A stretch of DNA of 63,490 bases, the filler included. It is 9 parts of 9 records of this genome, joined end to end, with 100 filler letters (N's around TTAATTAATTAA, not from the genome) between each part and the next. Parts side by side here need not be neighbours in the genome. Positions count along the whole stretch, not along the records: positions 21,625 to 28,419 come from DRR378314_998; 8 more parts are not named here. One strand, written 5' to 3'. Under the pieces are notes generated by a model. The model worked only from the letters and a program-made list of their open reading frames with translations. It searched no databases and was not told where the DNA came from. A program made the translations under genes and the position numbers. Position 1 is the first letter of the stretch; every line of letters begins with the position of its first letter. This document shows, piece by piece, positions 9,342 to 46,304 of the stretch.

Positions 9342-9441
9342 NNNNNNNNNNNNNNNNNNNNNNNNNNNNNNNNNNNNNNNNNNNNTTAATTAATTAANNN
9401 NNNNNNNNNNNNNNNNNNNNNNNNNNNNNNNNNNNNNNNNN
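9342..9441. other. Artificial contig linker (N44-TTAATTAATTAA-N44)
   Basis: A six-frame stop cassette flanked by Ns. Identical copies lie at 21525-21624, 28420-28519, 33744-33843, 39404-39503, 46349-46448, 52820-52919 and 58291-58390. Confidence 0.99.
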
Positions 9442-14523: not shown

Positions 14524-15993
14524 TCACGAAATCGTGTCCTGCACCTTGCAATCCGGTGAATCAATGGACAAGAGGGAGCCACACAGCTTGCAAACACGGA
14601 AGAGGCAAGGGTAAATGCCATACCTGTAGCGCCGTCATCCATTCGTGTAGCTCTTCACCCGTCGCACACCCGAGGTAGTATTCGCGCGCTGGGCACGAGA
14701 GGCACAGAGCGAGGTCGTGCTTCAACGGGCGCTTGTCGGAGTCGATCGGAGTACCGGTCTCGTCCATGGTGGGGTGCGATACGCGAGCATCCCGGAGCGA
14801 TATCACGCGGCTTGGTCTTGCGGCGGACGCATTTGGGAAGTATGCCAACGCGGACGGAAGCAGCGCGAAGAAACGGGTTTTCCAAGAAAAATTGCCAAGC
14901 ATTCCACCACCGCCGCGTTTCGCAAGCTTGCCGTGCTTGACTGCGACAGCCGCAAGCGCGTCGGCAGTGCATCGGGCTTCTGGAGCGTCGTGCACCCGAG
15001 CCTGCGCAGCGCAAGCACGCTCCATATCTCCGTCCGTGATATTTTCCGCTTGCATACGCTCGTTGATCCATCGGGTGCTCCGGGAGCCGCTATCGTCAAA
15101 CGTGGCAGACGCAGCGCCCTGTTGCACGTCTATGTGGCGCGACAGCTCCACGCCGGAGGCGTAAATGTAGATGCGGTTCTTTACAGACTCTTGCAGCCAC
15201 GGGCGAACGATGGCGTACAGAGTGCGGAAAAACCACGGCGTGTTCACGATAATCATATCCCCAATACTCTCGGGATAACGCTGTTGTATAGCATCGATGA
15301 TCAATTTTTCTACTCGCTCATTGAAATTGCGCAAAGACATTCCCTCGGCATCCATCAGCATGGAGACACGCCCTGCTGCGCCCTGACGCGCCTGCTCGCG
15401 CAGTGCGATCTCAAGCAGATACACCGTGAAGCGCAGCGTGTCCTCGGGTCCCGAAACCGAAGGGTCAAAGTCGCGATAGCGAATGAAAATAATCGGTCTC
15501 CCCGAGCGATCGATAGCACGGAGAATATAGGCGTAGCCGCGCTTGGCCTCGGCTGCGACGTGCGCAATGGTCATATCATCCACGCGCAGTTGCTGCCGCC
15601 AAGCCAGCGTGTCGCGGAGATGGCGCAGTGAGCGCTCGGCGTCCAGCCCGTTGTGAACGACGTGGCTGCAAAGGGCAAGCGAGGAGAATGCGCCCGAGAG
15701 TAACGCGCAAGGAAAAAAAAACGACAAAAATCCAGTCATCAAATAGCACTTGCGTCGATATGAAATGACAAAGGAGGGGAACCGCATGCGGGTCGAGCAC
15801 AAATGCAGAGCAAGCAAGAATACGACCGCCACGAACTTACACGCCCGAGCAGACACGACGCGCGCTCGAGAAAAACGCACTTTCGCAACAGCCACTCTGG
15901 GCACCGCCCATGCATTAGCGATTGCGGCGGGATCGCACTTCGAACCTCCTCCATGCAGGCAACCAGTTTACGATCATCGCCATCGGATTGCAT
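14524..15993 (-). CDS. CRAL-TRIO (Sec14) plus C-terminal PH domain protein, 3 exons
   Basis: CRAL-TRIO motifs (TLAWRQ, DRSGRPIIF, QQRYPESIGDMIIVNTPWFF..VRPWL) are followed by PH motifs (KHGKLAKRGG..WKTRFFAL..EELHEWMTAL). GT-AG introns lie near 15880-15667 and 14622-14545. Confidence 0.85.
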
Positions 15994-19625: not shown

Positions 19626-21524
19626 TTAGAGCTCTTCCTTCTCGCTCTTCGACGCCTTCTTGTTCTTCTTCGGCAGCTTGAACTTTTTGGCGGCGTTCTT
19701 CTTCAAGAACTTGAGCATGGCCTTGATGGTGCGCTTGCCGTCGTACTTGATCGGCTCAGCGCCTCCGGCGGGGTACAGGTAGATCGTGGGGAATCCCTCG
19801 ACCTGCACGCACAAACGCGGAACAAGAGCGGGAGCGACGCGCGCATTAGTCGGCCAAGCACCGCACGGAGAGTGCGGGCATAAGCATGATGCCGCGTCGA
19901 GTGCCGCGCCCATCTCAACGTTTCCTGCACGCAGCGACGAGTGCGCGATGGCGCGGCAGCAAGCCCGAGCGCACCTTGAGGCCATCCGCCTCGTTCTCCG
20001 TGCCGTCCATCTTCGCGATGACGAGCGAGTCGACGTCCTTGACGCGCTTCGCGAGTTTCTTCCACTTGGGCTCAAGAGCCTTGCAGTGGCCGCACCACGG
20101 CGCGTACACTTCGAGGAACACGTCCTTCTCCTCATCGAGGACCACCTGCGTGCGCGCGGCGGCGATGCGACGAACGCGCGCGAGTGCGGAAGAGACGCAT
20201 TGAGCAACGAGCGAGCCGTACTGTCCAACACACGGCCATTCCCGCTTTCCCCGTGCTTCCCTACGGGAAAATCACGCCCCGGATCGCACGTTCGCCCGCG
20301 CAGTGACGGGCCCGTACCTTCTTGAAGGACTTTCCCACAACAACGTGCACGCCGTCCTCGAGGGGATCCTCGGGCTCTGCGGCGGACTTGAGGAAGCGCT
20401 CGAGCTTTCCCTTGACGAGGTCGTCCGCGAACGCTTGCAGCGTATCCTTCTTGAACTCGACCTGCACCGCGTTCGGCACGCGGAAGAGCAAGGCACGCAG
20501 GCACATGGCGACGTCGACGGCGATGGGCAACGCGGTTCAGCGCAATGGACGCAACTCGAGCGCATAGCGAGGCTCGTAGCGCCTAAAGTGTATGTGGATA
20601 CGTAGGACATCATGCAATCGCAGCGTGCGCGTATTTCACTGCACACGACGGTGCACCAGACGATTCATTCCGCAGGTACTGCCGGTCGGAAGGAAACGAT
20701 AGAATAGAAGATAACGTATACAGCAAGCTCGCCCGAGGAAACGACGGCGAAAGCGAGCCGACAAACCGCAACGGCAGCGGCATCAGCATCAGCAAGGGGA
20801 CTATCTTCCGTTGCAATACGATGAAAGATACACTGCACTGCGTGAGTGGTACAGCTGTAGCTTCCAAGTACCAACATACGGAGTGATTTCTCCCGCGCAG
20901 TCAGTAACGCGCCGCGTGTGCAAACCATACCTTCTTGGGCTTGTACACCTTCATCTCGTCTTCCATATCCACGGCGACGAAGCTGGGAAGATCCTCCTTC
21001 TTCATCTGGAAAAAGTCGAGAACACCGCTCTCCGACTCCGGGATGCTCACGTAGATGACCGCATCGCGGTGGGTCTTGGCAACCTCGTTCACCACAGCGA
21101 ACTCATCCGCGTTATCCTCCTTGCTGCCGAGGAAGATGAACTGCTTCTTGATCTTCGCGTCGAAGATATCGCGGGCGAAATCGCGCGAGTACGGGATGAC
21201 ACGCGGGACGCGCTCGGAGCGCAGCCACTCCAGCGTTGCCTTCTCATCGCTGCTATCGCCATCGAACTCCACGTGCGTGGTCTCAAAGTTCTCCGCGGAG
21301 CGCTTCAGCACGGCAACTGGGGCCTTTCCTTTGACACCGAGATGCTTGATGACGTCCGCGTTATCCTTCGAGACAAACGCAGTCGGCATCTGCGAGGCTG
21401 CAAAGCTAAAAAGGAGGAAAAGAGGACGGGCCAGCGAGATCGAGGGCGCAGGTTCAGGTGGCAGCACGCGCACGCACACACACGTCCGGGCATCCCGCCA
21501 CAGCCGTAGCAGCATAAAGCCCCG
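19626..21524 (-). CDS. Protein disulfide-isomerase, 3' part (5' end beyond contig)
   Basis: The a' domain has YAPWCGHCK, AKMDGTENE and VEGFPTIYLYPAG. The b/b' exons lie upstream. The C-terminus KEEL* resembles an ER-retrieval signal. Confidence 0.93.
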
Positions 21525-21624
21525 NNNNNNNNNNNNNNNNNNNNNNNNNNNNNNNNNNNNNNNNNNNNTTAATTAATTAANNNNNNNNNNNNNNNNNNNN
21601 NNNNNNNNNNNNNNNNNNNNNNNN

Positions 21625-24509
21625 GTGAGGAAACATCACAGCTCTACCATCGATCCCGAGCACGCGGAGCAACAGCAATCGGTACATGACACACAGTACC
21701 ACGTACCTTGCTTTTCTCTCGCCTGGAGGAGCATGAGCGCTTCTCCACCGGGGTAATTCCTCGCTGAAGCTGCAGCGCCAAACGCCGTCACGCACAGCGC
21801 TAGTGCGATTCCCGCATACAATCCGTAGCGGTAGATACGCCACAGCACGTGCGATTTCTTCCTCGCATCGGCGATATGCATCGCTGCAGGCAACGTGAGG
21901 ACTGGGAACACGTAGAGAATAAATCGTACTTCTGCAGTGCGGAGAAAGAGAAACGAAAGAAAGAAAACGAAGGTTGAAGAGAGAGAAGTAACCACCGAGA
22001 ATACGACTTGTACATCCCTATTGTCTGTCTCTCATTGTAGAGCAAGTTACAGTCCACCGGCAAACGGGAAACGAAAGCAAAGAGAAATCAATAGTGGCGC
22101 TTAGAAAGAAGAAGAGGAGGGCAAGAAAACAAAGGAATCGCCAACAAATGACATTCGAATCGATAGCAACCCAAAAACGTCCAGAACGAAACGGGTTCTC
22201 CACTTTTTTTTTCGCTGTGAGAGAGGAAGAGACTTTGCGTGTCTTCTCACTGGCAGGAATCGCAGTTGTGTAACAAGGACGCGCCACCCATCTATCATTT
22301 CGCCTCCGCTTTCTCTTTGCACGGAACGAAGAAGAATTCGGAATTGCTACCGCTCGGGTTTCATTTGCACGGGAATGATTTCCGTTTTCCTTTCACGTAG
22401 CTGAGCGCGATCGCTACTCCTACGTGCTCACACTGGACCACAAACAAATACCGAACCTTTATGCGGCAAAAGCGAGTAAAGAGCAATAAACGCGAGCGCG
22501 GGAAGAACGTAGGGAGCGAGTTTCTTCCGGAACTGTACGAGTCCGATGGGAAGTAGCAGGTACGAGATCGTCATCGCGCGCGGAAGTGCCGAAGTGAAGT
22601 ACCTGATCCGCACGCGCACAGCATCGGCGAACAGCGCGCCCGTAAGCACCGCAGCGCCACGCCAGGAACCCTCCCGCTGCGTTCCCACGCACCGCGCGTA
22701 CCCCCCTCGATACAATCCGCGGCATACACGCGCTCACCATCGCGTATGAACGCACCATAGCGGCGGCATGCGCCCCCAGCGATGTGACTGGTTGAGCGCG
22801 GTGTTGAAGTAGAGCACTTCGCCCTCCGGCCACAGCCATCGACGCCACAGCGCCGAGTCTACGGCGACGGTGAGCGCCAACGCAGCGGCCGCAGCGATGC
22901 CGCAGCGCCACACAGCGCGCCACAGATGGATCTTGCCGCGGACGAGTGCTGCGACGACGACGGGGAACGCGAGCGCCGCGATCTGCGAGCGGTGGGAGAG
23001 CGGAGCGCGCGGAAGACGACGCGGGAACGGAGCGCGTGAGCGAGCGCGTTCGCCCGCGGGAGGGACTGGAATCACCAAGGAGTACGGTGAATGGTATACC
23101 CCCCTCTCTCGCCCCCGCGCGCGACTCCTTTCGCCGAAGCGCAAGACGGCCGTGTTCGCGCGTGCTGCGAGCGCGCCAAGGAGCACAAACGGGAGTCGGA
23201 GGGAGCGGAACACGGTGCACGCGCCGCGGCGATCGAGCGCACCTCCGAGCGGAAGATGACCGTTGCGGCGGTTAGACCAACGAGGCACTTCCTGTGGAAT
23301 CCGCGAATCCACCACGAGAAGCTTACGAGGACGATGGCGAACGCAAATGTGTTGGGAAGCGTACGCGAAGCGTAATACACGGTGTGGAATTGGCAGAGAA
23401 GCAGAATCTGGTACGTATTCGCCACAGATTCGCCGAAGCGGTGGCGCAGCGTCGATCGAAACGCCGCGTTCGCAGCCGTTACAAACGCCAAGAGGACCAT
23501 GCGCGCAATCATCAAGGATGCGAGCTTCGATAGGCCCATCCACTGCAGTCAAAGGATTACGAGCGCACGATACGATCACACAGGCGTACGCGCGCAGTGA
23601 TTATTGCAGGATGGAGGTGAAGCAAGAAGCGGCGGTGAAGGTACGAGGAAGCGGGAGAGCGCAAAAGCGCGCGCGAATGCAAGGAAGCCTCGCTCAACCA
23701 GGAGGAAGGGCGTTCCATAAGCTACGCGCATCCTGCATGCGGCGCGCTTCGGCGTGTGCCATTGGTACGAGAGCGCGCCTCTTCGTCCGCAAGTCGTACC
23801 TGGACAATGAAGTGCAGTGGGGACGCAACAATGGAGACGGCGAGGGCGCCGAGGAACGTCCGCGGAACGACGCCTGGAAACTCGTGATGGTCGTACAGGT
23901 CGATGTTCGACCGGTGGAAGAGGATATCGTGGATTGCCTGTACACGTACGATGCAGAAGGACGGAACAGGAGTATCATCACGCCATTCCCTCGGTGTGGA
24001 GCCGTACGCGATCGTGGCGCAGCTCCGGCCGTTCAGGACCAGTAATCACAATAACCAGCGTGTACTACTGCAAGGGCAGCAGTCACTGCATGGGCACGAG
24101 AGCACCATCGTCGCACTCGAGAATTGTGCGCACGGCTCTTCAAGGACGAATACCGGGTCAAGCGGGCCGGAAAAGGGAGGACCGGTCAACCGTTCTCCAG
24201 TATCTGCTCCATCCTCGTCGCAGAATAACGATGGAGCGCCGCCTACTCTTGGGGGAAAATAGGGATTCTCAAGCCCCGTTCCTGTGCTGTAGCCAATCAT
24301 CGACATGAATCGGGTACGATACGTACTTGTGTATTGAAGCTCTCCTCGACTTTGTTGAAAGGGGCGAGAATGATGCACAGTAGCCCCACAGAAAAGAACA
24401 GGTAGTCGTACGAAGCGAACGAGAACAGCCCGGACCCTTTCCCAACCGTGTGCTGCGTCGACTGCGATCGCAGAGCGTCCTGCAAGACGTCCGATGGGTT
24501 CTGTAGCAT
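21625..24509 (-). CDS. ALG12: Dol-P-Man alpha-1,6-mannosyltransferase (GT22), multi-exon, 3' end truncated by contig edge
   Basis: [88 protein letters not shown] are ALG12 signature segments. Confidence 0.92.
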
Positions 24510-24626
24510 CTGTGCAAAGGAACAAGGCACATACATTTAGGTGGCATGCCGGAGTAAGGCGCGCGTAGGGGCTACCACATGATGCAGAGAGGAAACCTGC
24601 GCGGAGAGAGTCAGCTTTGCAGGTCA

Positions 24627-25520
24627 CTATCGCACCTCGCCTGTGTTGAAATTCTGGAATACCGGCGCGGGTTTCTCGTCATTATCAGAATCATCTGCAT
24701 CGACGAAATCCCAATCGACCTTTTCCGTGGGCGGGCGAGGACGGTTGGGTTTCTGCACGCGGGCGGGACAACGAAGCTGCGCTGTGAGTTCGCTTCCCGC
24801 GCGTCGTGGCGCATCCTCGTGCAGAGTCGCAGAGCGCAAGAGTGCGCGCGCACGACCACGCGCCCAGCCTGTATCCGTTGGTGACAAGAGCTGTGATGGA
24901 TTGGCATCGCGTGCATACAACGTGTGACTCGCTCGCGCCGTCCACACCGCAACGAACGCGGCGTGCGGGCCCGTGCGCGCGTACCTGGAGAAACGCCCAC
25001 GACGCCTTCTCGCGCTTGTGCAGCACAACGCGGAGATCGCGACCGGTGCGAACGATTTTGGACTTGTTCGCATCAATTGTGGCAAAGAGCTCCAGTTCCA
25101 GTTCATGTCGGGAACTTTTCATCACGAAGCGCTCTTCCGTGTCGAACGCGCACTGTATTCGCGCGGACAGCGGTCGCGGCGCGGTGAGGCGGCGCTGCGA
25201 GAGCGACACGCTCGCTTCGCGCATCCGTCCAGCCGCCAGAAGCAACCCACAGAGAAATGCACCAAACGCAGTTTAAAGCAAACGATCATATACATGATAT
25301 GTCGAATACGGCGCGTTACGAATCCACGCGCAGTGATTGCTGCGCTACGGTGCGGGTAGAAAGACACCCGCGCTGCCGCTCCTCCCGCGTGCGCGTCGCG
25401 AAGGCTCGCACGGGCTCCCGCCGCTCGCACCTCTGCTTTTCCATCTTCATTAACGCCTGTCAACGTGAGTACCACAGCATCACTAGTCTGACCCCAGCGA
25501 TACGGGGGAAACAGCGGCAT
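24627..25520 (-). CDS. p23/Sba1-like CS-domain Hsp90 co-chaperone (3 exons; possibly spliced onto ALG12)
   Basis: MPLFPPYRWGQTSDAVVLTL..|..ELELELFATIDANKSK..RVVLHKREKASWAFLQ|KPN..KVDWDFVDADDSD resembles the p23 core and its KVDWDxxxDED motif. Confidence 0.75.
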
Positions 25521-25622
25521 ATCAGCGGCTTCGTACGTCACTCTTTCACGCACTCGCAGCACTTTCGCTCGTTTCGCGCACGATTCGGCAGGCTGGAAGC
25601 GCTCGCGCGCAGCGCTGCCCGA

Positions 25623-25714
25623 TACGATATGATCATCGTGCATGTCAGATGTACGACATGGAGAGTGCGCTCCATGGTACGAAATGATCATCGTTCATGT
25701 CAGATGTACGACAT
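25623..25714. repeat. Two 37-bp direct repeats separated by an 18-bp hairpin-forming spacer
   Basis: TACGA(T/A)ATGATCATCGT(G/T)CATGTCAGATGTACGACAT at 25623-25659 and 25678-25714, with 2 mismatches. Confidence 0.9.
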
Positions 25715-27737
25715 TCTCTGTTCGTGGTGATGCGCGTTTGCTGCCGTGGTGGGAACGCGAGCTGCCCGCCGTGCAAGCAGCTACCTCACGCGCGATATGC
25801 GGGTGAGAAACTCGTGACGAACAGTCGCAGACCATTCATCACAACGTACGCCTATAAATGAATGCTTTTTTTCTATTCAAGAGGAAACGATGCAAACCGG
25901 CCTTGGCCTGTTTTGTGTTTGTGCTCCTTCCATTTTTGAGGCAACAGGAGGAGGCGCAGTCTGTGCAGAGGTTCTCCTTTATTTTGCTCTATATGCGATA
26001 GTCATGCACGTGTAGACGATCAAGAGGTATCTGAAAATAGTAGAATCACATCAGGTGTGCCTAAACACTGATTTTTCTGGATGATCCTGCTCGGCAAACT
26101 GGCGCCGGTCCATCGCTCTCGACCAGCGAACTGCGAGTTCGCGTACAGGTGTCCGTCGCCGCGAGCTTTCCGCAAAGTGCAGAGCGCATGTGCAGGCGCT
26201 CCAGTTTAACGTTGATGCCTTTTTTCTCCGTGCAAAGCTCGCAGATCGAGCGCGCAAATAATCTTGCAGAGACCAAGTGGAGAACAGAGTGAAATAGGGA
26301 CCTCGGATAGAAGTGCGACAGTACGCATGGTCGTGCGCACCAGGTACGCCGACCCTGGCAATACGAGCACTTGCCCGACCTCCGCCGTCGCGCCTGGCAA
26401 GCGCAGCTGCGTGCGTACGTCACAAATCTCTGCGAATTTCCCGATGCAAACGATTCTACTGATCCACAAACATTGACAGTAGAAAATATTAATGTGTTAC
26501 GATAGTATTCAAGAAATAGTTTCATCTGAGAGAAACTCGAAAAGAAATGGGCCCAATGAGAAATGGAAAGCTTCCTTGCACGACCTCGCGTGCAGCGACG
26601 AAGGCTCAACTTCACAACCGATCTCCCACTTGAAGATCTCATTGCCCTCTCTGCGTGTAACCCCGCGGTGCATCGGTGCAGTGCTCGTAAAAGGGATCGA
26701 AAAAAGGCGCTTCGCACTTTGTAAGACGGCATATTCTTCGAACCGAATTGGCGAGGCTGTGACACCGCGGTGCGCGACGGGGCAAACGTGCGCCACACCG
26801 GCGCCGGGCACAGCGGTAGAATGGACTCGATCTACCTGGTGCGCCGCAACTATACGCGCACAGCTTTCCACCCGCCTCACGACAGATCCAATGATAGAAC
26901 AGACACTAGCTTCGTCTTACTATTTCATTTTGTGCGCTTCAGCTCACATGAGTATTCCGCTGTGCGCAGCTAGTGCAGTACGTGGTCCCGTGGTGAAGTG
27001 TCAGCGCGATTGTACGCGACAGCTGTCCTCTGCTGCGCAGCGACCGAGGGTGGAGAGCCCCAAAGCTGATAGACCTCTCATGTGCTACGCGAAACTCTTG
27101 TCTCTCCTTTCCCCTTCAGGTTATCATATTTGGTACAGTTGGTGTATTTTCTGTCCCTATCCTTGCAAAACTCCGGCATATGTTGCTGGTTCGACTAGGA
27201 ATGATCTCGGCTGCGCCGCCGCAGCATGACATGGAGGATGGTCCTGTACGTACGCACGCGGCAGAATACCCAGCTCCTAGACGACTCTTCTTCCTCCTCG
27301 CCGCAAAATTTCTCGTTGGTGAATCAAAGAGGAAAACTGCAGTCGTATTTATTATAGTCAAAATGCATATGGCGTGCGTAACGTATGGAAGAGGGCAGGA
27401 TGAAGTTCCCTTGCATAACATTCCTGGTTCGTTTCGCTGTCGTGCGCCTTGTCGCCGCGCATCTGGCCTTTTCCACATACAGCATCGCATGTCTATGGTC
27501 ACAGTGGCCTCAGTTATGGCGAGTGGAGCCGATGCAGGAGAAAGCAAGCATGACATGAATCGTGGATACTCTTCAGGAGAAGAAGAAGAGCCCGAAGAGG
27601 ATATATGGGAGGCGGATCGTGGCTGATGGAGAGGTTGGGATGCCGCACGGCAACCTTTCTTGCCACTCGTGGGGGCCGAGGACAATAGCATTTGTCACGA
27701 CGAAAGTCGAAGAAGGAGAAAGGCAGCGTCGCTTTTG

Positions 27738-28419
27738 TTATTCCAAGGAAATCACATCCTGTACACCATGGCAAATACACATGGGTATTCCACCATCTTG
27801 GAGTGCATGGAGCTCACGGAGGTAGTCGCCGGTAGAGGAGTCCGTGAGGTCGGTCGGAGGAGAATGTGACGGCGAAATTACGACGGCGGCGTCGGCGGAG
27901 TGCTTCCGAATGAGCGCGTTGACGATCTGGGACAGGTACCAAATGCCACATACCAAGACGAATTTTGTAAATTACAAATATAGAAAATAACGTGACCGCA
28001 ATTGGGGTCTCAAAAAGCAAGGATGTGGCTGAAAATGAATGTAATAATAAAGAACGAAGATCGTGTGCCGGCTGCCGATGCCTTGCACGCTGAAGTCTTG
28101 ATTCATAGACGGTTTCCGTCACACACGTTTGCAGGTGATAAACCAAAAGCAAATCACACTATTCTTGCGCTACGTTGCTGGTCTTGCCGTGTTTGGAGGT
28201 CGCACCTCGGCTTTTGCGCGGACGGAGCGCCTCACGAGCGACTCTCCCACCGACGCTCGGAGAGGACCCTCCGCATTCGCTTCCTCAACAATGCTCCGAA
28301 CCAACGGAGAATCGGCTGAATGGACAGGAACAGAATGAATCTGTGTTCGGATCGCATGCATACACGGACGCAACATACGGCGACGCCGAGTCATTCTTTC
28401 GGCACGAGCCGGACCCGGC
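27738..28419 (-). CDS. 3' exons of a cation-chloride cotransporter (SLC12/CCC family)
   Basis: The terminal exon 27926-27738 reads IVNALIRKHSADAAVVISPSHSPP..DYLRELHALQDGGIPMCICHGVQDVISLE*, resembling the SLC12 C-terminus. The preceding exon ends in GAG|GTGCGA. Confidence 0.7.
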
Positions 28420-28519
28420 NNNNNNNNNNNNNNNNNNNNNNNNNNNNNNNNNNNNNNNNNNNNTTAATTAATTAANNNNNNNNNNNNNNNNNNNNNNNNN
28501 NNNNNNNNNNNNNNNNNNN

Positions 28520-32900: not shown

Positions 32901-33843
32901 GAACCAGGTTCAGTGAAAATGTAAAAAAATTGCAAGAAAATATCGCAAACGGTACTTCCGAATCGATTCACTTTCAATACGATGCATGCGATGAAGTGTA
33001 TGCACTTGGGAGTCGTGGACAGAATCGCCCCAGCGCGCGCTTTGCAGTGCTGCGCTCCAGTGGCTGAGACGCGGTGAGAGGAGCTCGTAGAGCGCAACCA
33101 AGGTCCCACAGAGCACGCAAAGAGGTATTTGGTTCATCTTCTTCACCCCATTACATCTCAAACTGTAAGTATTTAAACTCAGTATTGAAAGCTCGTTCAC
33201 AGCACGCACGAAAGCAGCGAACAGGCCGATTGAAATCACGCCAGCTCGCTTTCTCCAGCTGAGAACGCGATCGCAAGTGCTGACACATGCACGGAAAGGC
33301 GGGAAAAGGCACGCACGGTGGCAAGCTCGCACCATTGCTTCCTCCCCAATACCCGCAAATGAGTGACCAATCCACGTCTACAGTGCAATTTCGTGCAGTG
33401 CACGTCCTCACTAACAGCAGGTGTGTCTCTGTGGTGGAATCCTGTAACTGTATACAACAGCACGTGCGCGAGTGGGCAAGTGCGCCGGGCCTGCCGCGCG
33501 CACAGGCTTGGCGCGCCACTCGGAGCGCGCGCCCGGCGATACGGCCGCACCGTAGGGCCGCGCACACGAGAGCGCGCGCGAGCGAGGGCGAGGGGTGCGC
33601 AGACCAGGCGCACGGGCGAGCTCGCGCCGCCGCGCAGACACCGCGCCGCCACGTGCACGAGCTAAAAGTTGAGAGTACGTCAAAGGCGATACACAGTTTT
33701 TCCGCTCACTAGTCGAGCCGATTTCGGCCTCTGCAGGGCTCGTNNNNNNNNNNNNNNNNNNNNNNNNNNNNNNNNNNNNNNNNNNNNTTAATTAATTAAN
33801 NNNNNNNNNNNNNNNNNNNNNNNNNNNNNNNNNNNNNNNNNNN

Positions 33844-35320
33844 CGCGATCGCGATCATCAATCGCAACCACCATCACTCGCGCATTCGCAATGCCCGCAG
33901 TTTCTAAAAGGTCTGAACGACTGGCATCGCCAAAGTAGCTTTTAATCCGAATATGGCGAAGGAGCTCAATTTGCTCAATTTCGAGGTCTAACGCTACGAT
34001 GGGAATGTTATTGGCGCGCAACAAGCGACATACAATCTGTCCAAAACGACCGACACCGGCGATGATCACTGGCGCTTGCTCTTCGATCTTATCGGCATCG
34101 CGCGTAGCGTTTTTAGCTGTTTGGTAGCGCGGCAGTACTAAGCGGTCGTAGGCAATAAACAACAGCGGTGTCGCAAACATGGAAAACGCGACAACCAGCG
34201 AAAGTAATTGCGACACATCAACAGGAATAACGTTGCTCTGCACGCTGTAAGTTAACAGCACAAAGCCAAATTCCCCTGCCTGCGCAAGGCTTAACGTAAA
34301 CAACCAGCCATTGCTATTACGAACCCGGAACAACATAGCTAACCCGAACAGGATAGTGCCCTTTACGACAATAACGCCAAGCACTAATAGCAATACGGTT
34401 GGCCACTGCGACGCGAATACCTGAAAGTCGATGCCAGCCCCAACCGTGATAAAAAACAGTCCGAGCAAAAGCCCTTTAAACGGTTCGATGTTGGCCTCAA
34501 TTTCGTGCTTGAATTCGCTATTAGCGAGTACGATACCGGCTAGAAACGCGCCAAGCGCTGGAGATAAATTGACAACCCCCATCAGCGCTGCAATGCCAAT
34601 AACCAGCATTAAAGCGGCAGCTGTAAACACCTCTCTCAAGCCAGAAGAAACCACGTAGCGAAACAGCATCGGTCCAAGGTAATGCCCACTAATAATGACG
34701 ATCCCGATAGCCCCAACCACCACCAGCCCGTGGAGCCATCCAGGCATATCCTCGACAAGGCTAAGGCTGCTATGTTCAGCGTAACTACCACCTTCTCCCA
34801 TTAGTTCGGGCAGCGCCAATAGTGGGATCAACGCCAACATCAGGATCACCGCGATGTCTTGAAATAGCAGCACCGAAAACGCGCTGCGTCCGCCTTCAGT
34901 TTTCGTGAGTCCTTTTTCGTTTAGGGTTTGCAGCACAATCGCCGTTGAGGAAAGCGCGAAAATCAAACCGACGGCCAAGGATGTTTGCCAGGCAAGTCCC
35001 AGCCACCAAGCAACAGCGGTACCTGCAGCGGCTGTTATCAGCACCTGTAAACCACCCATCCCTATCAAGCTTACCCGCATGGCCCACAGCCCTTTTGGGT
35101 CGAGCTCCATACCGACTAAAAACAGCATCATCACCACACCAAACTCGGCGAAGTGCTGAATCGTCGTAGTTTCCTGGCCGACTAATCCCAGCATTGGGCC
35201 TATCACCACCCCAGCGACCAAATAACCGAGCACCGAACCAAGTCCAAACCGCTTGGCAAGGGGAACAGCGATTACCGCTGCAATGAGATAGATAAACGCT
35301 TGAATAAAATAGTCGGTCAT
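33844..35320 (-). CDS. kefC: CPA2 K+/H+ antiporter, KefB/KefC family (3' truncated)
   Basis: GLGSVLGYL, AEFGVVMMLFLVGMEL, LLFQD, PFKGLLLGLFF, LAQAGEFGFVL and the KTN Rossmann motif IAGVGRFGQ. Confidence 0.9.
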
Positions 35321-35348
35321 CGGACTTCCTCAAATTAACACGAAGGGC

Positions 35349-35392
35349 TTGACTTCATTACGCAATAGGATACCGTACTAGTACGCTAGTAC
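35349..35392 (+). promoter_or_regulatory. sigma70 promoter overlapped by a TrpR operator
   Basis: -35 TTGACT (35349-54) and -10 TACCGT (35371-76). The palindrome GTACTAG-TACG-CTAGTAC (35375-92) fits the TrpR consensus GNACT-N8-AGTNC. Confidence 0.85.
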
Positions 35393-35438
35393 AGCAACTT
35401 ATTTCCTTACTTTTGTGGCAATACGGTGAACTCACTTT

Positions 35439-35732
35439 ATGTCATTTGATGATGACCATCAGGCTGATTTAGTACGCTATTTACTTGCCATTGATTCGCC
35501 AGAAGCAATGGACGAAGCACTAGCCAGCCTGTTAACGCCCGCAGAGTACCAAGAAATCTGCAAACGCCTACAGATTTTTAAGCTTTTGCGTGAAGGAGTC
35601 CCCCATCGCAAAATCGCTGAAATCCTGGGCGTCGGTATTGCCACGGTATCCCGCGGTTCGCGCGCTTTAACCACGCTACCTTCTTCAACGTTACCTTCAT
35701 CACTACCGTCACCCACTTCACGGACCGATTAA
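35439..35732 (+). CDS. trpR: Trp repressor
   Basis: LLTPAEYQEICKRLQIFKLLREGVPHRKIAEILGVGIATVSRGSRAL is a TrpR HTH. A cognate operator lies upstream. Confidence 0.9.
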   Translation: MSFDDDHQADLVRYLLAIDSPEAMDEALASLLTPAEYQEICKRLQIFKLLREGVPHRKIAEILGVGIATVSRGSRALTTLPSSTLPSSLPSPTSRTD

Positions 35733-35734
35733 TC

Positions 35735-37159
35735 ATGACGACGACTACGCCTGCTTCATCAGGCCCGCAACCTTTTACGCTGTCGCGCAAGCCTCACTAC
35801 GTCACCCTGGCGGCGGACTGTGACTTTTTTGCTCTATTTCAAAAAATTGAACGCCAATTTGATACCTGCTACATGCTGGAATCACTAGGCGAAGATAGCC
35901 ATATGGCGCGCCACTCGATTATTGGCTTTGACCCTGAGTACACGCTTTACGCCAATGGCAGCACGTTAACTATTGAAGATCGTGACGGTAATGCAAACCA
36001 CTATCCAAGCGATAACCCTTATGAGTTGCTGCGCAGCTTGATTCCGCAAAATATTATTTCTCGTAAGTATGCGGGTGGGCTAAGTGGTTATCTTGGCTAT
36101 GACGCCATGCAATACTTTGAGCCTTCGTTATCGTTGAAAGCTAGCGACGATTTCGACACGTTTCGATTTGGCCTTTATAAAGATGGTTTGATCCTCGACA
36201 AAATGACCGGGGAAGTCACCTATTTTTATTACGACAACAGTCGCTACGAGTTTCTGCAAACCTTGATCGACGCTGATGATATCTCCCCAGGCGAGCTGCA
36301 TATTACTGCGCTGGGCGACACCATGAGCCGCGAAGAGCACGCCGAAGCGGTGGCCAAGGTGAAGCAGGACATCATCGACGGTAAGGTTTTCCAGTGCGAA
36401 GTCGGCTTTAAAAAGCGCTTTAGCATTAAAGGCGATACGCTAGCGCTCTACGATCAGCTACGCACCATTAACCCATCGCCACAGATGTACTACGTGAAAT
36501 TCGGCGAGCAGAAGCTGATTGGCGCAAGCCCCGAGCTGCTGTTCAGGCTCCGCCAGGGCGAGATGGAGACCTTCCCACTGGCAGGCACCACTACTCGTGG
36601 CAAAACCCCGCAAGAAGACACGCAGCTAGCTCGCGCACTACTCAACGATCCCAAAGAGATTGCCGAGCACAATATGATTGTGGACCTACACCGCAATGAT
36701 ATTGGCCGAGTGGCGCAATTTGGCACGGTGAAAGTACGTAGCCTGATGGACATCAAACGCTTTAGCCACGTACAACATATCTCCAGTGAAATTGTTGGCA
36801 TTATTGCCGAAGGCGAAGACATGTTTACATCGCTTGCCAGCAACTTCCCTGCGGGCACACTGACGGGCGCGCCAAAAATCGAAGCAATGAAAATTATCGA
36901 TGACTTGGAAACTGACGGTCGCGGCCCTTACGGCGGCGCGGTTGGCCAATTCTCATTTAACGGCGACTGCACCTTCGCGATTCCGATTCGCACCGTCTTT
37001 GTAAACGGTGAAAGCGCTTACGTGCAAACTTGTGGCGGCAACGTGTTTGATAGCAACGCCGAAGATGAGTACGAGGAAATACGCCGCAAATTTGCAGGCA
37101 CCCGCAAAGCCCTTGCTCCTTTTATGAGCGCGGATATGGACATGGAGAGCCAAGCATGA
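35735..37159 (+). CDS. trpE: Anthranilate synthase component I
   Basis: MLES, GASPE, PLAGT (Ala, where PabB has PIKGT Lys), KEIAEHNMIVDLHRND, HVQHI, FPAGTLTGAPK, RGPYGG. Confidence 0.9.
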   Translation: MTTTTPASSGPQPFTLSRKPHYVTLAADCDFFALFQKIERQFDTCYMLESLGEDSHMARHSIIGFDPEYTLYANGSTLTIEDRDGNANHYPSDNPYELLRSLIPQNIISRKYAGGLSGYLGYDAMQYFEPSLSLKASDDFDTFRFGLYKDGLILDKMTGEVTYFYYDNSRYEFLQTLIDADDISPGELHITALGDTMSREEHAEAVAKVKQDIIDGKVFQCEVGFKKRFSIKGDTLALYDQLRTINPSPQMYYVKFGEQKLIGASPELLFRLRQGEMETFPLAGTTTRGKTPQEDTQLARALLNDPKEIAEHNMIVDLHRNDIGRVAQFGTVKVRSLMDIKRFSHVQHISSEIVGIIAEGEDMFTSLASNFPAGTLTGAPKIEAMKIIDDLETDGRGPYGGAVGQFSFNGDCTFAIPIRTVFVNGESAYVQTCGGNVFDSNAEDEYEEIRRKFAGTRKALAPFMSADMDMESQA

Positions 37160-37815
37160 AGGTGCTAATTATCGATAACTACGACTCCTTCACCTATAAC
37201 TTGTATCAGTTTATTGGTGAGATTTTAACCACCGAGAAGAATCGCGGCGAACTGCCTCATTTCGAGATTATTGTTAAGCGCAACAATCAAATCGACTTTA
37301 AAGCGATAGAAGCCATGGCGCCTGATCGGATTATTATCTCGCCGGGCCCAGGCTCGCCGGATGATCCGCGTTACTTTGGCGTCTGTGCCGACGTTATCGA
37401 GAAACTCGGCAAAACCACGCCACTGTTGGGCGTTTGCCTGGGCATGCAGGGCATTGTTCACGTTTTTGGCGGCAAAGTGGTAAAAGCGCCTCTACCGATG
37501 CATGGCAAAATCAGTCCGATCAACCACAACAATCGCTCGGTATTTAATGGCGTGCCTGACCAGCTTGAGGTGATGCGCTATCACTCATTGATTGCCGACG
37601 CGTTCACCCTGCCTGACTGCCTGGAAGTAACCGCAACAGTGGGCGCGCTAGGTGCTGACAAGTTTGAGCAACGCAGCCACTGGCAAGCAGTAGGTGAGTT
37701 TGAATTGATGGGCGTAAAGCACCGTGATTACCCCATTCACGGCATTCAGTTTCACCCCGAATCGTTTGCCACAGAAGGTGGCAAAGAGCTCATTGCTAAC
37801 TTCTTATTTGCCTGA
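37156..37815 (+). CDS. trpG: Anthranilate synthase glutamine amidotransferase component II
   Basis: IDNYDSFTYNL, ISPGPG, GVCLG, MRYHSL, QFHPES. ATGA overlap with trpE. Confidence 0.93.
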   Translation: MKVLIIDNYDSFTYNLYQFIGEILTTEKNRGELPHFEIIVKRNNQIDFKAIEAMAPDRIIISPGPGSPDDPRYFGVCADVIEKLGKTTPLLGVCLGMQGIVHVFGGKVVKAPLPMHGKISPINHNNRSVFNGVPDQLEVMRYHSLIADAFTLPDCLEVTATVGALGADKFEQRSHWQAVGEFELMGVKHRDYPIHGIQFHPESFATEGGKELIANFLFA

Positions 37816-37853
37816 CCCATCAGGCTTAGCGTTGAGATAACTTAGCGACTAAC

Positions 37854-37877
37854 GGCGGGCACTCAGAGCTGCCCGCC
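37854..37877. terminator. Hairpin between convergent trpG and rluF
   Basis: GGCGGGCA-ctcagagc-TGCCCGCC, with no strong U-tract. Confidence 0.5.
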
Positions 37878-37884
37878 CTACTCT

Positions 37885-38925
37885 CTAACGCTTCCCTTTC
37901 GGGCGACCAACACGGCCTTTCCCCACCGGCTTGGCCCCTGCCTTGCTGTTTTTTCCTGCGCCAGCGGTTTTGCCCCTGGGCTGCGGTTTACCCGAAGCAC
38001 TGGCTTTTGGGCCAGTTCTCACTTTACCGCTGGCGGTTCTTTTACCCTTGGGCGGCGGTTTATTGCCAACCGTTTTAGCACCCGGCTTAGCCGGTTTCTG
38101 GCGACCCTGTTTCTGCCGCTCCTTGGTGGCTGTTTTTTTCGGTTTGTTAGCGCCTGACCCCGAATTGTAATCCGGCCTTGCTGTCTGGCTCTTTTCAGGC
38201 ACTGCCTCAGAGCGTTCTGTCAGCGCGACAATCGTATCAATCTCTTTAGGAGTTAGATCCCGCCAATCGCCCAGAGCCAACCCTTGCAGGGAAACATTCA
38301 TTATCCGTGTGCGAACAAGCTGGGTGACCTCGTAGCCAAAGTACTCGCACATACGGCGAATCTGGCGGTTCAACCCTTGCACCAGCGTAATAGTGAACAC
38401 AAACGTCGACGCTTTGGTCACTTTACACTTTTTAGTCACCTGCCCAAGGATCGGTACACCCTTTTGCATGCTGGCAACAAATTCATCGGTAATCGGCTTG
38501 TTGACCGTCACCACATACTCTTTTTCATGATTATTATTAGCGCGCAGGATCTTATTAACCAAGTCGCCATTATTGGTTAGAAAGATCAGCCCCTGTGAGT
38601 CTTTATCCAGCCGCCCGATGGGAAAGATGCGCGTGCCGTGCTTCACGAATTCAACAATATTGTCCTTTTCGCTGGACTCAGTGGTACTGACTATTCCCAC
38701 CGGCTTATTTAGCGCAATCAGCACTAAATCCTCTTCTTCCTGAGGCTCAATCTCTTGACCGTTGACCTTAACCCGATCACCCGGCACCACTTGGTCGCCT
38801 GTCGCTGCCCGACGCCCATTAATCCAAACGTTGCCTTGTTCAACATAGCGGTCAGCCTCTCGGCGAGAACACAAACCGCTTTCGCTGATGTATTTATTGA
38901 TGCGGGTAGATTTTCGTAACGACAT
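37885..38925 (-). CDS. rluF: 23S rRNA pseudouridine 2604 synthase
   Basis: S4 domain ([18 protein letters not shown]), [22 protein letters not shown] and a basic low-complexity tail. Confidence 0.93.
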
Positions 38926-38993
38926 AAAACGCCATAGGCAAGAGTGTGGTGAAGTGATTAAGTAAAATTCAAACGCTAACGTTAAAAGCCTGA

Positions 38994-39403
38994 CTAGAAG
39001 CCGGACCCAGGTTGTTTAAGAAACTCTATTTCGGCTGGCGTAGATACCCGGCCCAACACGTCGTTGCGGTGGGGATAACGACCAAAGCGGTCAATGATCG
39101 CTTTGTGACGAATTTCGAAATCCAGGTTGTTCTCTAAACCAGGCTGATCAAACAGCTGCATTGCCACCTCATGAATAGCGGCAGACTCACTGTGCATATA
39201 AGGCATGTATAAAAAACTACGCTCGACGGGAGCCAGTTCGTTATCCACCGCTAAAGCAACCGCTTCCTGTGCAAGCGCTAAGGCTAACGCGTCACTGGCG
39301 AAGGCTTGCAGGTGGTCACGATAGATATTTCGCGAAAACTGGTCCAACACAATAATTTCAGCCAGCCTCCCTCGAGCAGTACTGCGCCACTCATAACATT
39401 CAC
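38994..39403 (-). CDS. DUF924 family protein (5' truncated)
   Basis: [38 protein letters not shown]. Confidence 0.9.
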
Positions 39404-39503
39404 NNNNNNNNNNNNNNNNNNNNNNNNNNNNNNNNNNNNNNNNNNNNTTAATTAATTAANNNNNNNNNNNNNNNNNNNNNNNNNNNNNNNNNNNNNNNNN
39501 NNN

Positions 39504-39879
39504 CGGCCAACATAAACGTTCTATGAACTTAAAACGACGTGGTACAGCACCGCTATCAGATGTGATACGTGTGCATGCATTGGCTATCGGATCTAGAAAG
39601 CAGAATTCTTTTGAGCGACTTGAAGATATTATTGAGTCTAAATTACTTCCGCAAGGAAAAGCGCAAGACTTAAGAGATGCACTGGAGTACATTGCTATGA
39701 TCCGTATTAGGCATCAAGCGTGGCAAATTGAGCAGCTCAATGAACAACCTGATAATGACTTAGAACCCCATCTGCTATCACCATTTGAGCAACGAAATCT
39801 GAAAGAGGCCTTTGCAATTTTGGATAAAGCACAGAATTTTCTTAAATTTAAGTACTCTACAAATGTGTCTATTAAATAG
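39504..39879 (+). CDS. C-terminal part of a DUF294 nucleotidyltransferase-like protein (5' truncated)
   Basis: NLKRRGTAPLSDVIRVHALAIG..NSFERL..IRIRHQ..LSPFEQRNLKEAF fits DUF294_C. It sits directly upstream of an exonuclease, the usual partner. Confidence 0.85.
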
Positions 39880-39892
39880 TGAAGGAGGTTAA

Positions 39893-40582
39893 ATGCTAAG
39901 CTGGCCCAATCGTTATAAGCAGCTACTAAATCAATGCAAAACAAAACCGGTTCATGATTTTTATCAGCGCGTTGTAGACAAGCCATCAATGCCAATTAGC
40001 GAAGTACCTATGGTTGCGCTTGATTTTGAAACGACGGGTTTAGATTATTTAAATAATGATATTGTCAGTGTTGGATTAGTGCCATTTAATACTCAGCGTA
40101 TTCGGTGTCGCGACAGCCAGCAATGGCTGGTAAAGCCCAGACAAACTTTGGCTGAAGACTCAATAGTAATCCATGGCATTACACACACGGAGGTAAATCA
40201 GGCCCCTGATTTTTCCGAAATTATAACCCCCTTACTCACTGCTTTATCAGGCAAGGTAATTGTGGTTCACTTTGCTGCTGTTGAACGGCATTTTCTTTAC
40301 CATGCCTTAAAAGAGCGTTTAAATGAAGGACTTGAGTTTGCGGTTATTGATACAATGGAATTGGAAAAAAGGGCACTAAAAGCACGACAAGGTCTGTTAG
40401 GAAGAGTACTAAATCAAAAGCTTGATTCAGTGAGGTTAGCGGATTCGCGTTCACGATATTCTTTACCCGCTTATAACAACCACAATGCATCAACGGATGC
40501 CTTGGCTACAGCAGAGTTATTACAAGCTCAGTTGGCCTATCACTATCGCATTGACACACCGCTAAGTGATTTATGGGTATAA
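39893..40582 (+). CDS. DEDDh 3'-5' exonuclease (DnaQ-like)
   Basis: ExoI ALDFETTGL, a variant ExoII VHFAAVE, and ExoIII HNASTDA. Confidence 0.9.
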   Translation: MLSWPNRYKQLLNQCKTKPVHDFYQRVVDKPSMPISEVPMVALDFETTGLDYLNNDIVSVGLVPFNTQRIRCRDSQQWLVKPRQTLAEDSIVIHGITHTEVNQAPDFSEIITPLLTALSGKVIVVHFAAVERHFLYHALKERLNEGLEFAVIDTMELEKRALKARQGLLGRVLNQKLDSVRLADSRSRYSLPAYNNHNASTDALATAELLQAQLAYHYRIDTPLSDLWV

Positions 40583-40611
40583 AAAAACGCCGCAATCAAT
40601 GCGGCGTTCTT
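40581..40611. terminator. Probable bidirectional intrinsic terminator
   Basis: A7-flanked AACGCCGCA-atcaa-TGCGGCGTT between convergent genes. Confidence 0.85.
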
Positions 40612-40626
40612 ATTTGTAAATGTTAC

Positions 40627-42201
40627 TTAGCTTCTCGGTTCTGTCTTTAAACCCATTAATAAGCTAACACACATTAATAACAGCACAACGGTAAATGGCA
40701 GACCAGTAGACACAGCGCCAGCTTGTAAAGCTTCCATAGCCTGAGTGCCTCCCACCCAAAGCAAGGTGGCCGCAATTGCACCTTCAACAGATGCCCAAAA
40801 TATACGCTGTGGTACAGGCGCATCAACTTTGCCACCTGCTGTAATCGAGTCTATTACAAGTGAGCCTGAATCCGAAGAAGTAATAAAAAATACCAAAACC
40901 AAAACAACCGCAGTAAATGAAAGTAGCTTGGCCATAGGAAGTTCATCAAACATTTCAAACATAGCAAGAGGCACTTGCGTTAAACCGTCAGTACCTAGCT
41001 TACCAATGCCACTGACAACTTGATCGATGGCAATACCGCCATAAATCGACATCCACAATATGGTGACTAAAGTTGGGATGAGTAACACAGCTGTTAAAAA
41101 CTCTCTAATAGTACGTCCTTCAGACACACGAGCGATAAACATACCAACAAACGGTGACCATGATATCCACCAAGCCCAGTAAAATACAGTCCAACCATGC
41201 ATCCAGGTTTCATCTTCACGCCCATGAGGATTACTCAGTGGGATGATATTCTCAACATAGCCCATTACGGTGGTAGGAATATTGCCAACAGCAGCTGCGA
41301 AACCAACAAGACATACAAAAGTCATTAAGATAAATGCGATCAGCATGTTTACATTACTTAGAAGTTTCACACCGCCATCAATACCACGGACAACAGAAAT
41401 CACAGCCAGTAGTGTGACAACAGCAATAACCAGTATTTGTAAACCAACACCAGACTCCAAGCCGAAAACATGGTTAATACCAGCTGACGCCTGTTGTGCA
41501 CCTAGTCCAAGTGAAGTAGCTAAGCCAAATAAAGTTGCTAATACTGCTAAAATATCAATGATATGACCTGGCCAACCCCATGTTTTATCCCCAAGTATTG
41601 GATAGAAAATTGATCTAATAGACAGAGGTAAACCTTTATTGTATGTAAAAAAGGCAAGTGATAATGCAACAACGGCATAAATTGCCCATGGGTGTAAGCC
41701 CCAATGGAACATAGTTGCACCCATCGCTAGCTTTGCAGCTTCCGGGGTATTGGGTGTGACGTTTAAAGGTGTTTCATACCAACCAGTAAAATAGGCAACA
41801 GGTTCAGCAACGCCCCAAAACATTAAACCTATACCCATGCCGGCTGCAAACAGCATTGCCATCCACGATAAGCGAGAGTGAGTTGGGCGTGCATTAACAC
41901 CGCCTAGTCTAATTTTGCCGTAGGGGGAAAGAATGAGTCCTATACAAAATAATAGAAATATATTGGCAGACCACATTAAAAAACTATCAAAATGATTAAT
42001 AATATCGAATTTAATGCCATCTAAAGTGGATTTTGCAGTTTGTGGATCACTGACTAAAACAGCGATTAAGAAAATTAGAATTAAACCTGCGCTTGTTCCA
42101 AAAACCGGGTTATGAACATCAAACCCCCATTTTTGCACATTATCCTGACCGACAGTGTAATCAGTATTATCAATGCTATATTTGTCATGATTATCGCTCA
42201 T
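40627..42201 (-). CDS. BCCT family (betaine/choline/carnitine) transporter
   Basis: SWMAMLFAAGMGIGLMFWGVAEP, FHWGLHPWAIY, WTVFYWAWWISWSPFVGMFIARVS, FFITSSDSG. A GAGG RBS favours the start at 42201. Confidence 0.95.
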   Translation of the reverse strand: MSDNHDKYSIDNTDYTVGQDNVQKWGFDVHNPVFGTSAGLILIFLIAVLVSDPQTAKSTLDGIKFDIINHFDSFLMWSANIFLLFCIGLILSPYGKIRLGGVNARPTHSRLSWMAMLFAAGMGIGLMFWGVAEPVAYFTGWYETPLNVTPNTPEAAKLAMGATMFHWGLHPWAIYAVVALSLAFFTYNKGLPLSIRSIFYPILGDKTWGWPGHIIDILAVLATLFGLATSLGLGAQQASAGINHVFGLESGVGLQILVIAVVTLLAVISVVRGIDGGVKLLSNVNMLIAFILMTFVCLVGFAAAVGNIPTTVMGYVENIIPLSNPHGREDETWMHGWTVFYWAWWISWSPFVGMFIARVSEGRTIREFLTAVLLIPTLVTILWMSIYGGIAIDQVVSGIGKLGTDGLTQVPLAMFEMFDELPMAKLLSFTAVVLVLVFFITSSDSGSLVIDSITAGGKVDAPVPQRIFWASVEGAIAATLLWVGGTQAMEALQAGAVSTGLPFTVVLLLMCVSLLMGLKTEPRS

Positions 42202-46187: not shown

Positions 46188-46268
46188 ACTGCTAAACTAG
46201 CACAATAAAGACAATATGTTTACAGGAATAAAAGTTGAACAACAGGAGGGCAGTTAAACACGCTAATT

Positions 46269-46304
46269 AAAGCATGCACCATTTGAACTAATGATGCATG
46301 CTTT
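46269..46304. terminator. Hairpin or terminator upstream of pxpB
   Basis: AAAGCATGCAcCATT..AATGaTGCATGCTTT inverted repeat. Confidence 0.55.

Follow-up and report, generated by a model that had tools for sequence, protein, structure and literature searches.

A p23-type CS domain in one reading frame with the N-glycan mannosyltransferase ALG12

A 63,490-nucleotide stretch of assembled DNA (the window) carries, on the minus strand from 25581 to 21707, what is very probably one gene of at least 10 exons that encodes a single polypeptide, in which a p23-type CS domain, a linker and the mannosyltransferase ALG12 follow one another. The splice that joins the p23-like and ALG12 coding regions is present in an assembled transcript contig, the fused reading frame is open, and the same fused architecture is conserved in other eukaryotes. 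An earlier interpretation of the same DNA (the sequence-only reading) had proposed that a p23 co-chaperone and ALG12 are fused by removal of one short intron, and that retention of this intron releases free p23. Our analysis bears out the fusion, and the intron is very probably an ordinary one.

In the proposed order, residues 1 to about 113 would comprise a CS domain of the p23 type, its tail motif and an acidic stretch, about 40 residues would serve as a linker, and the remainder would be ALG12, the endoplasmic reticulum (ER) dolichyl-P-Man:Man7GlcNAc2-PP-dolichol alpha-1,6-mannosyltransferase of family GT22. In the synthesis of the N-glycan precursor, ALG12 attaches the eighth mannose, and a human glycosylation disorder results from its loss. 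The stretch of 126 nucleotides (nt) between the two coding regions would be an efficiently removed intron inside the linker, such that the ATG at 24509 would be an internal methionine codon.

Gene structure and transcript evidence

The minus strand was read from 21400 to 25800, and the gene model was rebuilt by script. Its features, with the evidence for each, are as follows.

25521..25581, minus strand: 5′ untranslated region without an ATG; record 3 of run X1 reaches 25581, so this length is a minimum
25431..25520, minus strand: exon 1, 30 codons, with the start codon and the initial strands of the p23-like CS domain (joint 25152/25431)
24985..25152, minus strand: exon 2, 56 codons, remainder of the CS beta-sandwich (contig joints)
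24636..24752, minus strand: exon 3, 39 codons, p23 proximal-tail motif K-V-D-W-D, acidic DDSD and start of the linker (sequence, alignment)
24510..24635, minus strand: intron 3, 126 nt, GTGCGA..CACAG, the supposed switch (absent from contig record 3)
24327..24509, minus strand: exon 4, 61 codons, conserved linker motif, membrane helix 1 and the catalytic K-V-E-E-S-F-N of ALG12
23800..23937, minus strand: exon 5, ALG12 luminal loop 1 with the G-V-V-P-R-T-F motif (contig, alignment)
23243..23542, minus strand: exon 6, ALG12 Q-F-H and F-R-S-E motifs (Pfam Glyco_transf_22, E 1.4e-7)
22756..22982, minus strand: exon 7, ALG12 (Pfam Glyco_transf_22, E 2.5e-8 for the enclosing frame; contig joints)
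22457..22602, minus strand: exon 8, ALG12 (Pfam frame scan, contig)
21932..22456, minus strand: intron 8, 525 nt, both spliced and partly retained (records 1 and 2 of X1)
21707..21931, minus strand: exon 9, ALG12 with the N-Y-P-G-G motif; the transcript goes on into exons outside the piece (loose end at 21707)

The p23-like frame starts with the ATG at 25520, and exons 1 to 3 (90, 168 and 117 nt, all in phase 0) supply 125 codons. The corresponding residues start with P-P-Y-R-W-G-Q and end with K-V-D-W-D, the acidic D-D-S-D and ..N-T-G-E. The last codon of exon 3, GAG at 24636, is followed by GTGCGA, TAG (24629-24627) and TGA (24626-24624). Intron 3 contains a pyrimidine-rich tract and has the 3′ end ..TTTGCACAG, with CACAG at 24510. 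This acceptor abuts the ATG at 24509-24507, which is in phase 0 with the p23 exons and lies 117 nt from the TAG. When the minus strand was read again, the splice sites at 24635 and 24510 and the lengths of 126 and 117 nt reported by the sequence-only reading all proved correct. So did its remark that the donor hexamer recurs in this genome, as intron 1 (25430) has a GTGCGA donor too. Each of the eight introns is of the GT..AG type, with a donor that reads GTRCGN or GTTCGG, and a script that joined the nine exons returned 531 codons with no stops.

Because the leader, as far as it is seen (61 nt), holds no ATG, a scanning ribosome should start at the p23 ATG and read on into ALG12. At its other end, the gene runs off the assembled piece that spans 21625-28419. 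Since 21625 is the end of this piece, the 3′ part of ALG12 lies outside the window and the luminal domain at the C terminus is absent from our reading, which also ends short of the full 11 transmembrane helices expected of ALG12; compared with homologues, about 130 C-terminal residues are missing. Farther upstream, a direct repeat of about 35 nt (TGTCGTACATCTGACATG..CGATGATCAT..TCGTA) occurs in two copies at about 25630-25720 on the minus strand, roughly 110-200 nt upstream of the p23 start. This repeat lies just upstream of the contig 5′ end at 25581, and may be a promoter element.

Transcript evidence comes from one small public run, X1, which consists of assembled contigs and whose RNA label is a guess; contigs lose rare variants, and transcript ends are invisible in them. 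Of the sampled words of 21640-25600, X1 contains 45%, close to the fraction of this region that is exon. Three of its contigs match the window, each with a similarity of at least 99%. Record 3 (1430 nt, depth 10.8, 0 other letters) extends from 25581 to 22457 and lacks seven introns of the GT..AG type, which read CT..AC on the plus strand. Contigs that lack introns can come only from spliced RNA, which identifies X1 as complementary DNA of this organism.

The joint 24509/24636, which the sequence-only reading had proposed to seek in RNA, is one of seven joints of this gene that record 3 contains. The contig skips 126 letters at this point; the shorter side of the joint has 117 letters, and only 2 letters are ambiguous. 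The junction words must have been present in the reads of X1. The spliced p23-ALG12 form is thus real at the RNA level. Two depth bins over intron 3 have values of 4.5 and 6.9, which equal 10.8 multiplied by the exon fraction of each bin, and hence there is no contig coverage of this intron in X1. Furthermore, record 3 is continuous at 24636 and breaks at 22457, where spliced and unspliced forms coexist. Record 1 (depth 9.39) joins 21931/22457 and extends past 21707, with 367 letters before its placed part; the loose end at 21707 has a median length of 255 letters.

Intron 8 is also represented in unspliced form. Record 2 (387 nt, depth 4.4, compared with 9.4-10.8 for spliced contigs) covers 22100-22486 on the minus strand without a splice, and passes from exon 8 for 357 nt into intron 8. 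It reflects either intron retention or an alternative 3′ end, and its frame meets a stop after nine more codons, which would truncate ALG12.

The two domains and their fused relatives

The sequence-only reading had suggested a search for proteins that combine CS and Glyco_transf_22 domains, and such fusions are found in other eukaryotes. With ALG12 exon 6 as the query, phmmer matched 728 of 1.84 billion representative proteins at E<=1e-3, and the best 150 were inspected. The match begins about 150 residues later than usual in several of these, and 32 of the 150 (long proteins and those with a late match offset) were scanned against Pfam. In five of the 32, an N-terminal CS domain (PF04969) precedes Glyco_transf_22, with scores above the CS cut-off for P0014, P0047 and P0144 and just under it for P0067 and P0041. 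A sixth protein, P0065, is a CS-like fusion by alignment throughout its length, and gives no Pfam CS match even at E<=1. Six of the best 150 among the 728 ALG12 representatives therefore carry an N-terminal CS/p23-like domain.

Sources of these fusions are Ceratiomyxa fruticulosa (EukProt), Pelomyxa schiedti (NCBI KAH3755916.1, named 'GPI mannosyltransferase'), a EukProt transcript, and assemblies from Logan, JGI and ENA. In addition, a 651-residue isoform from Diphylleia rotans has both CS (25.2 bits) and GT22 domains, and falls in the same 90% cluster as a short form of 484 residues. The latter begins inside membrane helix 1 and is for this reason probably an open reading frame (ORF) called on a truncated transcript. 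Three word-index searches were also made. Exon 2, searched among longer proteins, found no match in 9 candidates; residues 1-150 of P0047 found only P0047 itself in 230 candidates; and ALG12 exon 6, again among longer proteins, found 6 distant matches, none with a CS domain.

Alignment of the window protein with the six fusions runs from its P-P-Y-x-W start, in the first CS strand, across the junction of exons 3 and 4 and into ALG12, and passes through the motifs W-x-x-L-Q and P-x-P-P-x-E-K-x-D-W-D. Directly after the junction, L-Q-N-P-S-D matches a linker motif, L-D-N-(P/A)-(S/T), that is common to four of the fusions. The methionine at 24509, which the sequence-only reading had taken for a separate ALG12 start, aligns with an internal L, I, M or F of this shared motif in the fused homologues, and is thus not needed in that role. 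The window protein is 24-33% identical to its fused homologues in the first 125 residues, and 36-41% identical in the ALG12 part. A profile made from the N-terminal parts of the six fusions matches residues 3-113 of the first 125 residues of the window protein with 69.8 bits (E 5.5e-21), compared with 6.5 bits for the best of 200 shuffles.

Both by profile and by predicted fold, the N-terminal domain is classified as p23-type. Exon 2, when compared with PDB at E<=10, matches human p23/PTGES3 sequences exclusively (three of three, best E 0.073); exon 3 has no match in PDB. The CS part of the fused-family profile matches At3g03773 (5e-11), SGT1 (1e-10), Sba1 (1.8e-8) and PTGES3 (1.2e-7). With the p23-type proteins the match continues past the core and through the tail motif, whereas with SGT1 it ends at the core. 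With the same profile, the CS domain of KIAA1068 (PDB 1wgv), which we take to be HACD3, reaches only E 0.35. A beta-sandwich of the CS kind is indicated by this N-terminal profile match and by Pfam CS matches in three of the six fusions and in the Diphylleia isoform. The core is followed by an acidic stretch, D-A-D-D-S-D-N-D-E in exon 3, and this region is acidic in all fused homologues.

The fold was assessed with an AlphaFold model of the Ceratiomyxa homologue, rather than of the window protein, which was built with a 68-row alignment. The model has a mean predicted local distance difference test (pLDDT) score of 90.2. Residues 1-110 form a confident beta-sandwich, residues 116-156 are a linker in which pLDDT is below 50, and the ALG12 body completes the model. 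In a Foldseek comparison, this model retrieves chicken ALG12 (9s6t_A) first, with a template modeling (TM) score of 0.93. The best CS-type folds are human p23 chains of Hsp90 complexes (7y04_C, TM 0.82; ranks 6-8), ahead of SGT1, and 1wgv appears at rank 40.

PMC7864943 describes an aromatic pair, F121/W124 in Sba1 and F103/W106 in the human protein, that binds the Hsp90 middle domain; F121 is indispensable to the binding of Hsp90, and W124 to the slowing of its ATPase. At the F121 position the window protein has the W of D-W-D, and six of seven fused proteins have W or F. The W124 position is V in the window protein and V, M, T, Y or F in the family, never W, such that the F/W pair as a whole is not found. 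The head would thus keep the aromatic residue that p23 needs for Hsp90 binding and lack the tryptophan that slows the ATPase. Given the kept F121-type residue, binding of Hsp90 by the fused domain is plausible.

In the second part of the protein, Pfam Glyco_transf_22 (PF03901) is matched by four exon frames, two of them above the 23.8-bit cut-off (E 1.4e-7 and 2.5e-8) and two just below it (4e-5 and 6.2e-4); exons 4 and 5, when submitted singly to Pfam, match no family. The profile of the six fusions scores 518 bits (2.5e-154) with the ALG12 structure 9s6t and 82 bits (3.3e-22) with ALG9, and the nearest named relatives are annotated as alpha-1,6-mannosyltransferase or ALG12. By way of the fused homologues, which are 36-41% identical to it, the window protein is indirectly assigned to ALG12, and not to ALG9, PIG-B or PIG-Z.

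In chicken ALG12 (9s6t), E35 is the catalytic base in luminal loop 1, and R67, H140, R185, R271 and R312 bind donor and acceptor phosphates (PMC13503287). The motifs around E35, R67, H140, R185, W256, R271, R312 and N370, mapped by eye and with the 9s6t chain numbering in the profile match offset by 6, are all present in the window protein. Among them are K-V-E-E-S-F-N, V-V-P-R-T-F, Q-F-H, F-R-S-E, A-L-P-R-A and H-K-E-x-R-F. Because every one of the published functional-residue motifs is present, the enzyme looks active.

The ALG12 N terminus is cytosolic (PMC13503287), and the p23-type domain should consequently face the cytosol. In the window protein, the first hydrophobic segment spans residues 153-180, directly before K-V-E-E-S-F-N, with none before 153 and no signal-peptide-like start. 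The p23-like domain would thus sit on a flexible tether at the cytosolic face of the membrane, with mannose transfer in the lumen. By analogy with the CS domain of HACD3, the head is most likely a cytosolic docking or chaperone/holdase module, possibly for Hsp90.

Alternative readings and distribution of the fusion

If the fused protein is the product of this gene, then why does a stop lie directly after the donor of intron 3, and an ATG directly after its acceptor? The sequence-only reading saw in this layout a splicing switch, in which regulated retention of the 126-nt intron gives free soluble p23 (..GEVR) and its removal gives ER-tethered p23-ALG12, with the two forms being tuned. What stands is that retention would bring an immediate stop after ..GEVR, two codons beyond the donor. 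Retention does occur in this organism, as intron 8 (21932-22456) is both spliced and unspliced in X1, and the long fused and short isoforms of Diphylleia rotans share one cluster. A regulated switch at intron 3 nevertheless appears quite unlikely to us, given the lack of contig cover over this intron and the lack of a contig break at 24636 of the kind seen at 22457. Stops inside introns are the rule, the short Diphylleia form starts in membrane helix 1 as a truncated transcript would, and no free p23 form is needed to explain the conserved fused ORFs. Moreover, an mRNA that retains an intron with an early stop is more likely to be degraded than translated, which also counts against the switch.

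The same layout would suit two independent neighbor genes, p23 and ALG12, that are occasionally joined by readthrough into a conjoined transcript as in human PTGES3L-AARSD1, and most eukaryotic ALG12 proteins indeed have no CS domain (27 of the 32 scanned). We regard this arrangement as very unlikely, since fused ORFs with a homologous CS domain and linker are present in seven or more further protein clusters of distant taxa, and in these homologues the two flanks of the junction align with one continuous sequence. The 5′ exons of ALG12 are seen in X1 only when attached to p23 exons. The fused form is the sole form assembled there, within the limits of these data, in which transcript ends are invisible, and its ORF is conserved, which does not fit a readthrough pair. 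The sequence-only reading had also argued that 117 nt leave little room for a polyadenylation site and a promoter; this argument falls away, as there is no intergenic region.

Could the contig itself be a chimera, made from two transcripts? Shared words can lead a De Bruijn assembly to join separate transcripts, and a contig that crosses two genes does not demonstrate a single transcript. However, the joint falls exactly on an in-frame GT..AG intron, with 117 letters on its shorter side and only 2 ambiguous ones, and the joined protein matches independent fused proteins of other organisms, which renders an assembly artefact scarcely credible. Spliced-leader trans-splicing of a polycistron at the 24510 acceptor was also considered and set aside; nothing points to it, and splicing at this acceptor takes place in cis.

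A single gene with an ordinary intron 3 remains by far the best explanation, although several observations weigh against it. The RNA evidence derives from the one small, contig-only run with a guessed label, which leaves room for small amounts of a p23 mRNA that keeps the intron, or for an internal start of ALG12, and a contig that spans two genes is by itself no proof of one molecule. Taken singly, the p23 exons of the window are below the Pfam CS threshold (exon 1 at E 0.23 over profile positions 1-20, exons 2 and 3 with no match). The valine at the Sba1 W124 position makes the classical action of p23 on Hsp90 doubtful; free p23 acts on the closed form of Hsp90 with ATP bound, whose ATPase it slows. 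Thus, of the ER-tethered Hsp90 co-chaperone envisaged by the sequence-only reading, the tethered cytosolic p23-type domain fits the topology of ALG12 (PMC13503287), whereas classical p23 braking is in doubt.

The distribution of the fusion adds to these reservations. On an ALG12 tree of 70 rows and 485 columns (8 rows of at least 440 residues were dropped because they lacked a motif or were short), the 8 fused rows need 7 changes. A single clade of fused rows is not rejected (approximately unbiased, or AU, test, p-AU 0.299; log-likelihood difference 23.0), a result compatible with one origin as well as with several, and the group for this test was defined by domain content, but after the tree had been seen. 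The tree is poorly resolved, with the fused rows scattered and three of them next to unfused sisters, which include Mastigamoeba balamuthi (sister to Pelomyxa) and metagenome fragments. The ALG12 closest to that of the window is from Arcella intermedia (44% over 366 columns), which gives no more than a hint of an amoebozoan source, and the ALG12 models of both Mastigamoeba balamuthi and Arcella intermedia have no CS domain. Either the fusion is not universal in Amoebozoa, or it has been missed by gene callers. Some apparent losses may be annotation errors, as the layout of this gene easily misleads gene callers: an ATG after the acceptor and stops after the donor invite them to split it. Such splitting may explain why relatives such as Mastigamoeba seem to be without the domain, and why database names refer to the mannosyltransferase only.

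Other parts of the window and comparison with known systems

The window consists of nine assembled pieces of 5.1-12.1 kb that are chained by linkers of 44 N, TTAATTAATTAA and 44 N. Because of this construction, neighbors across a linker need not be genomic neighbors.

9342-9441, 21525-21624, 28420-28519, 33744-33843, 39404-39503, 46349-46448, 52820-52919 and 58291-58390: linkers

Three of the pieces, 33844-39403, 39504-46348 (guanine plus cytosine content 0.40) and 52920-58290, carry long intron-free genes of bacterial type. Among these are asparagine synthase B (957 bits, above the equivalog cut-off), a BCCT transporter, component I of anthranilate/aminodeoxychorismate synthase, RNase D and PurM, and the three pieces look like contigs of co-cultured or contaminating bacteria in a eukaryote assembly. 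On a different piece from the p23-ALG12 gene, a protein disulfide isomerase-like gene occupies 19626-21400 on the minus strand (Thioredoxin_6, E 6.7e-17), and its C-terminal exon ends with K-E-E-L, a signal of the ER-retention type. A single long ORF at 14561-15967, also on the minus strand, encodes a Sec14-like lipid-transfer protein with CRAL/TRIO (E 3.3e-29) and PH (E 1.3e-13) domains.

Full-text literature searches, whose scope leaves subscription journals and supplements outside, retrieved no paper on a p23-ALG12 architecture. The fusion is apparently undescribed. The statement of the sequence-only reading that no such fusion is known thus holds for the searchable literature, but fused proteins are already in public databases, solely under mannosyltransferase names. 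ALG12 has so far been treated as a bare membrane protein, and a conserved cytosolic head of the p23 type constitutes a Rosetta-stone hint. It suggests that in several protist lineages the dolichol-linked oligosaccharide pathway is touched by cytosolic chaperone machinery or by a chaperone-like holdase.

Relative to canonical ALG12 of family GT22, as represented by the chicken structure 9s6t, the window protein has the same enzyme body and functional motifs and about 150 extra N-terminal residues. Its first domain resembles p23/Sba1/PTGES3 and At3g03773 in that a CS beta-sandwich is followed by the tail motif P-x-x-K-x-D-(W/F)-D and an acidic run. Unlike p23, Sba1 and PTGES3, however, this domain is not free and soluble, and in place of the long client-binding tail it has a linker that leads into a membrane enzyme.

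As architecture, the comparison with HACD3 drawn by the sequence-only reading is apt. HACD3 is listed among CS-domain Hsp90 co-chaperones in PMC8694271. It too carries a p23-like CS domain at the N terminus of a polytopic enzyme of the ER membrane, but the enzyme is unrelated and its CS domain is a far weaker match to ours (E 0.35 compared with 1e-7 to 5e-11; Foldseek rank 40). The HACD3 fusion therefore looks like an independent one. The p23-ALG12 gene also differs from another joined pair of the p23 family, since its fused ORF is conserved and apparently the only form, with no sign of two transcription units. In that human case, PTGES3L-AARSD1, a p23-family coding region is spliced onto a downstream enzyme.

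A further protein for comparison is P0013 (JGI, 629 residues), an ALG12 representative in which the N-terminal-domain profile hits the C-terminal residues 472-578 (E 9.8e-8; Pfam CS only 0.091). A hydrophobic segment at 594-623 follows this p23-like region, in mirror image of the arrangement in the window. P0013 and the window protein are alike in having ALG12 and a p23-like domain in one chain, but the domain is C-terminal in the former and N-terminal in the latter. One rather doubtful possibility is that the pairing of p23-type domains with ALG12 is ancient and functional, with the domain N-terminal and cytosolic in the window protein, Ceratiomyxa, Pelomyxa and Diphylleia, and C-terminal and luminal in P0013. 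If true, then one type of domain would serve the same enzyme from either side of the membrane, and its role would probably be independent of Hsp90, for example to hold or assemble either ALG12 itself or a complex of enzymes of the lipid-linked-oligosaccharide pathway. Likewise, the free p23 of animals and fungi may then have an unrecognized link to the N-glycan precursor pathway.

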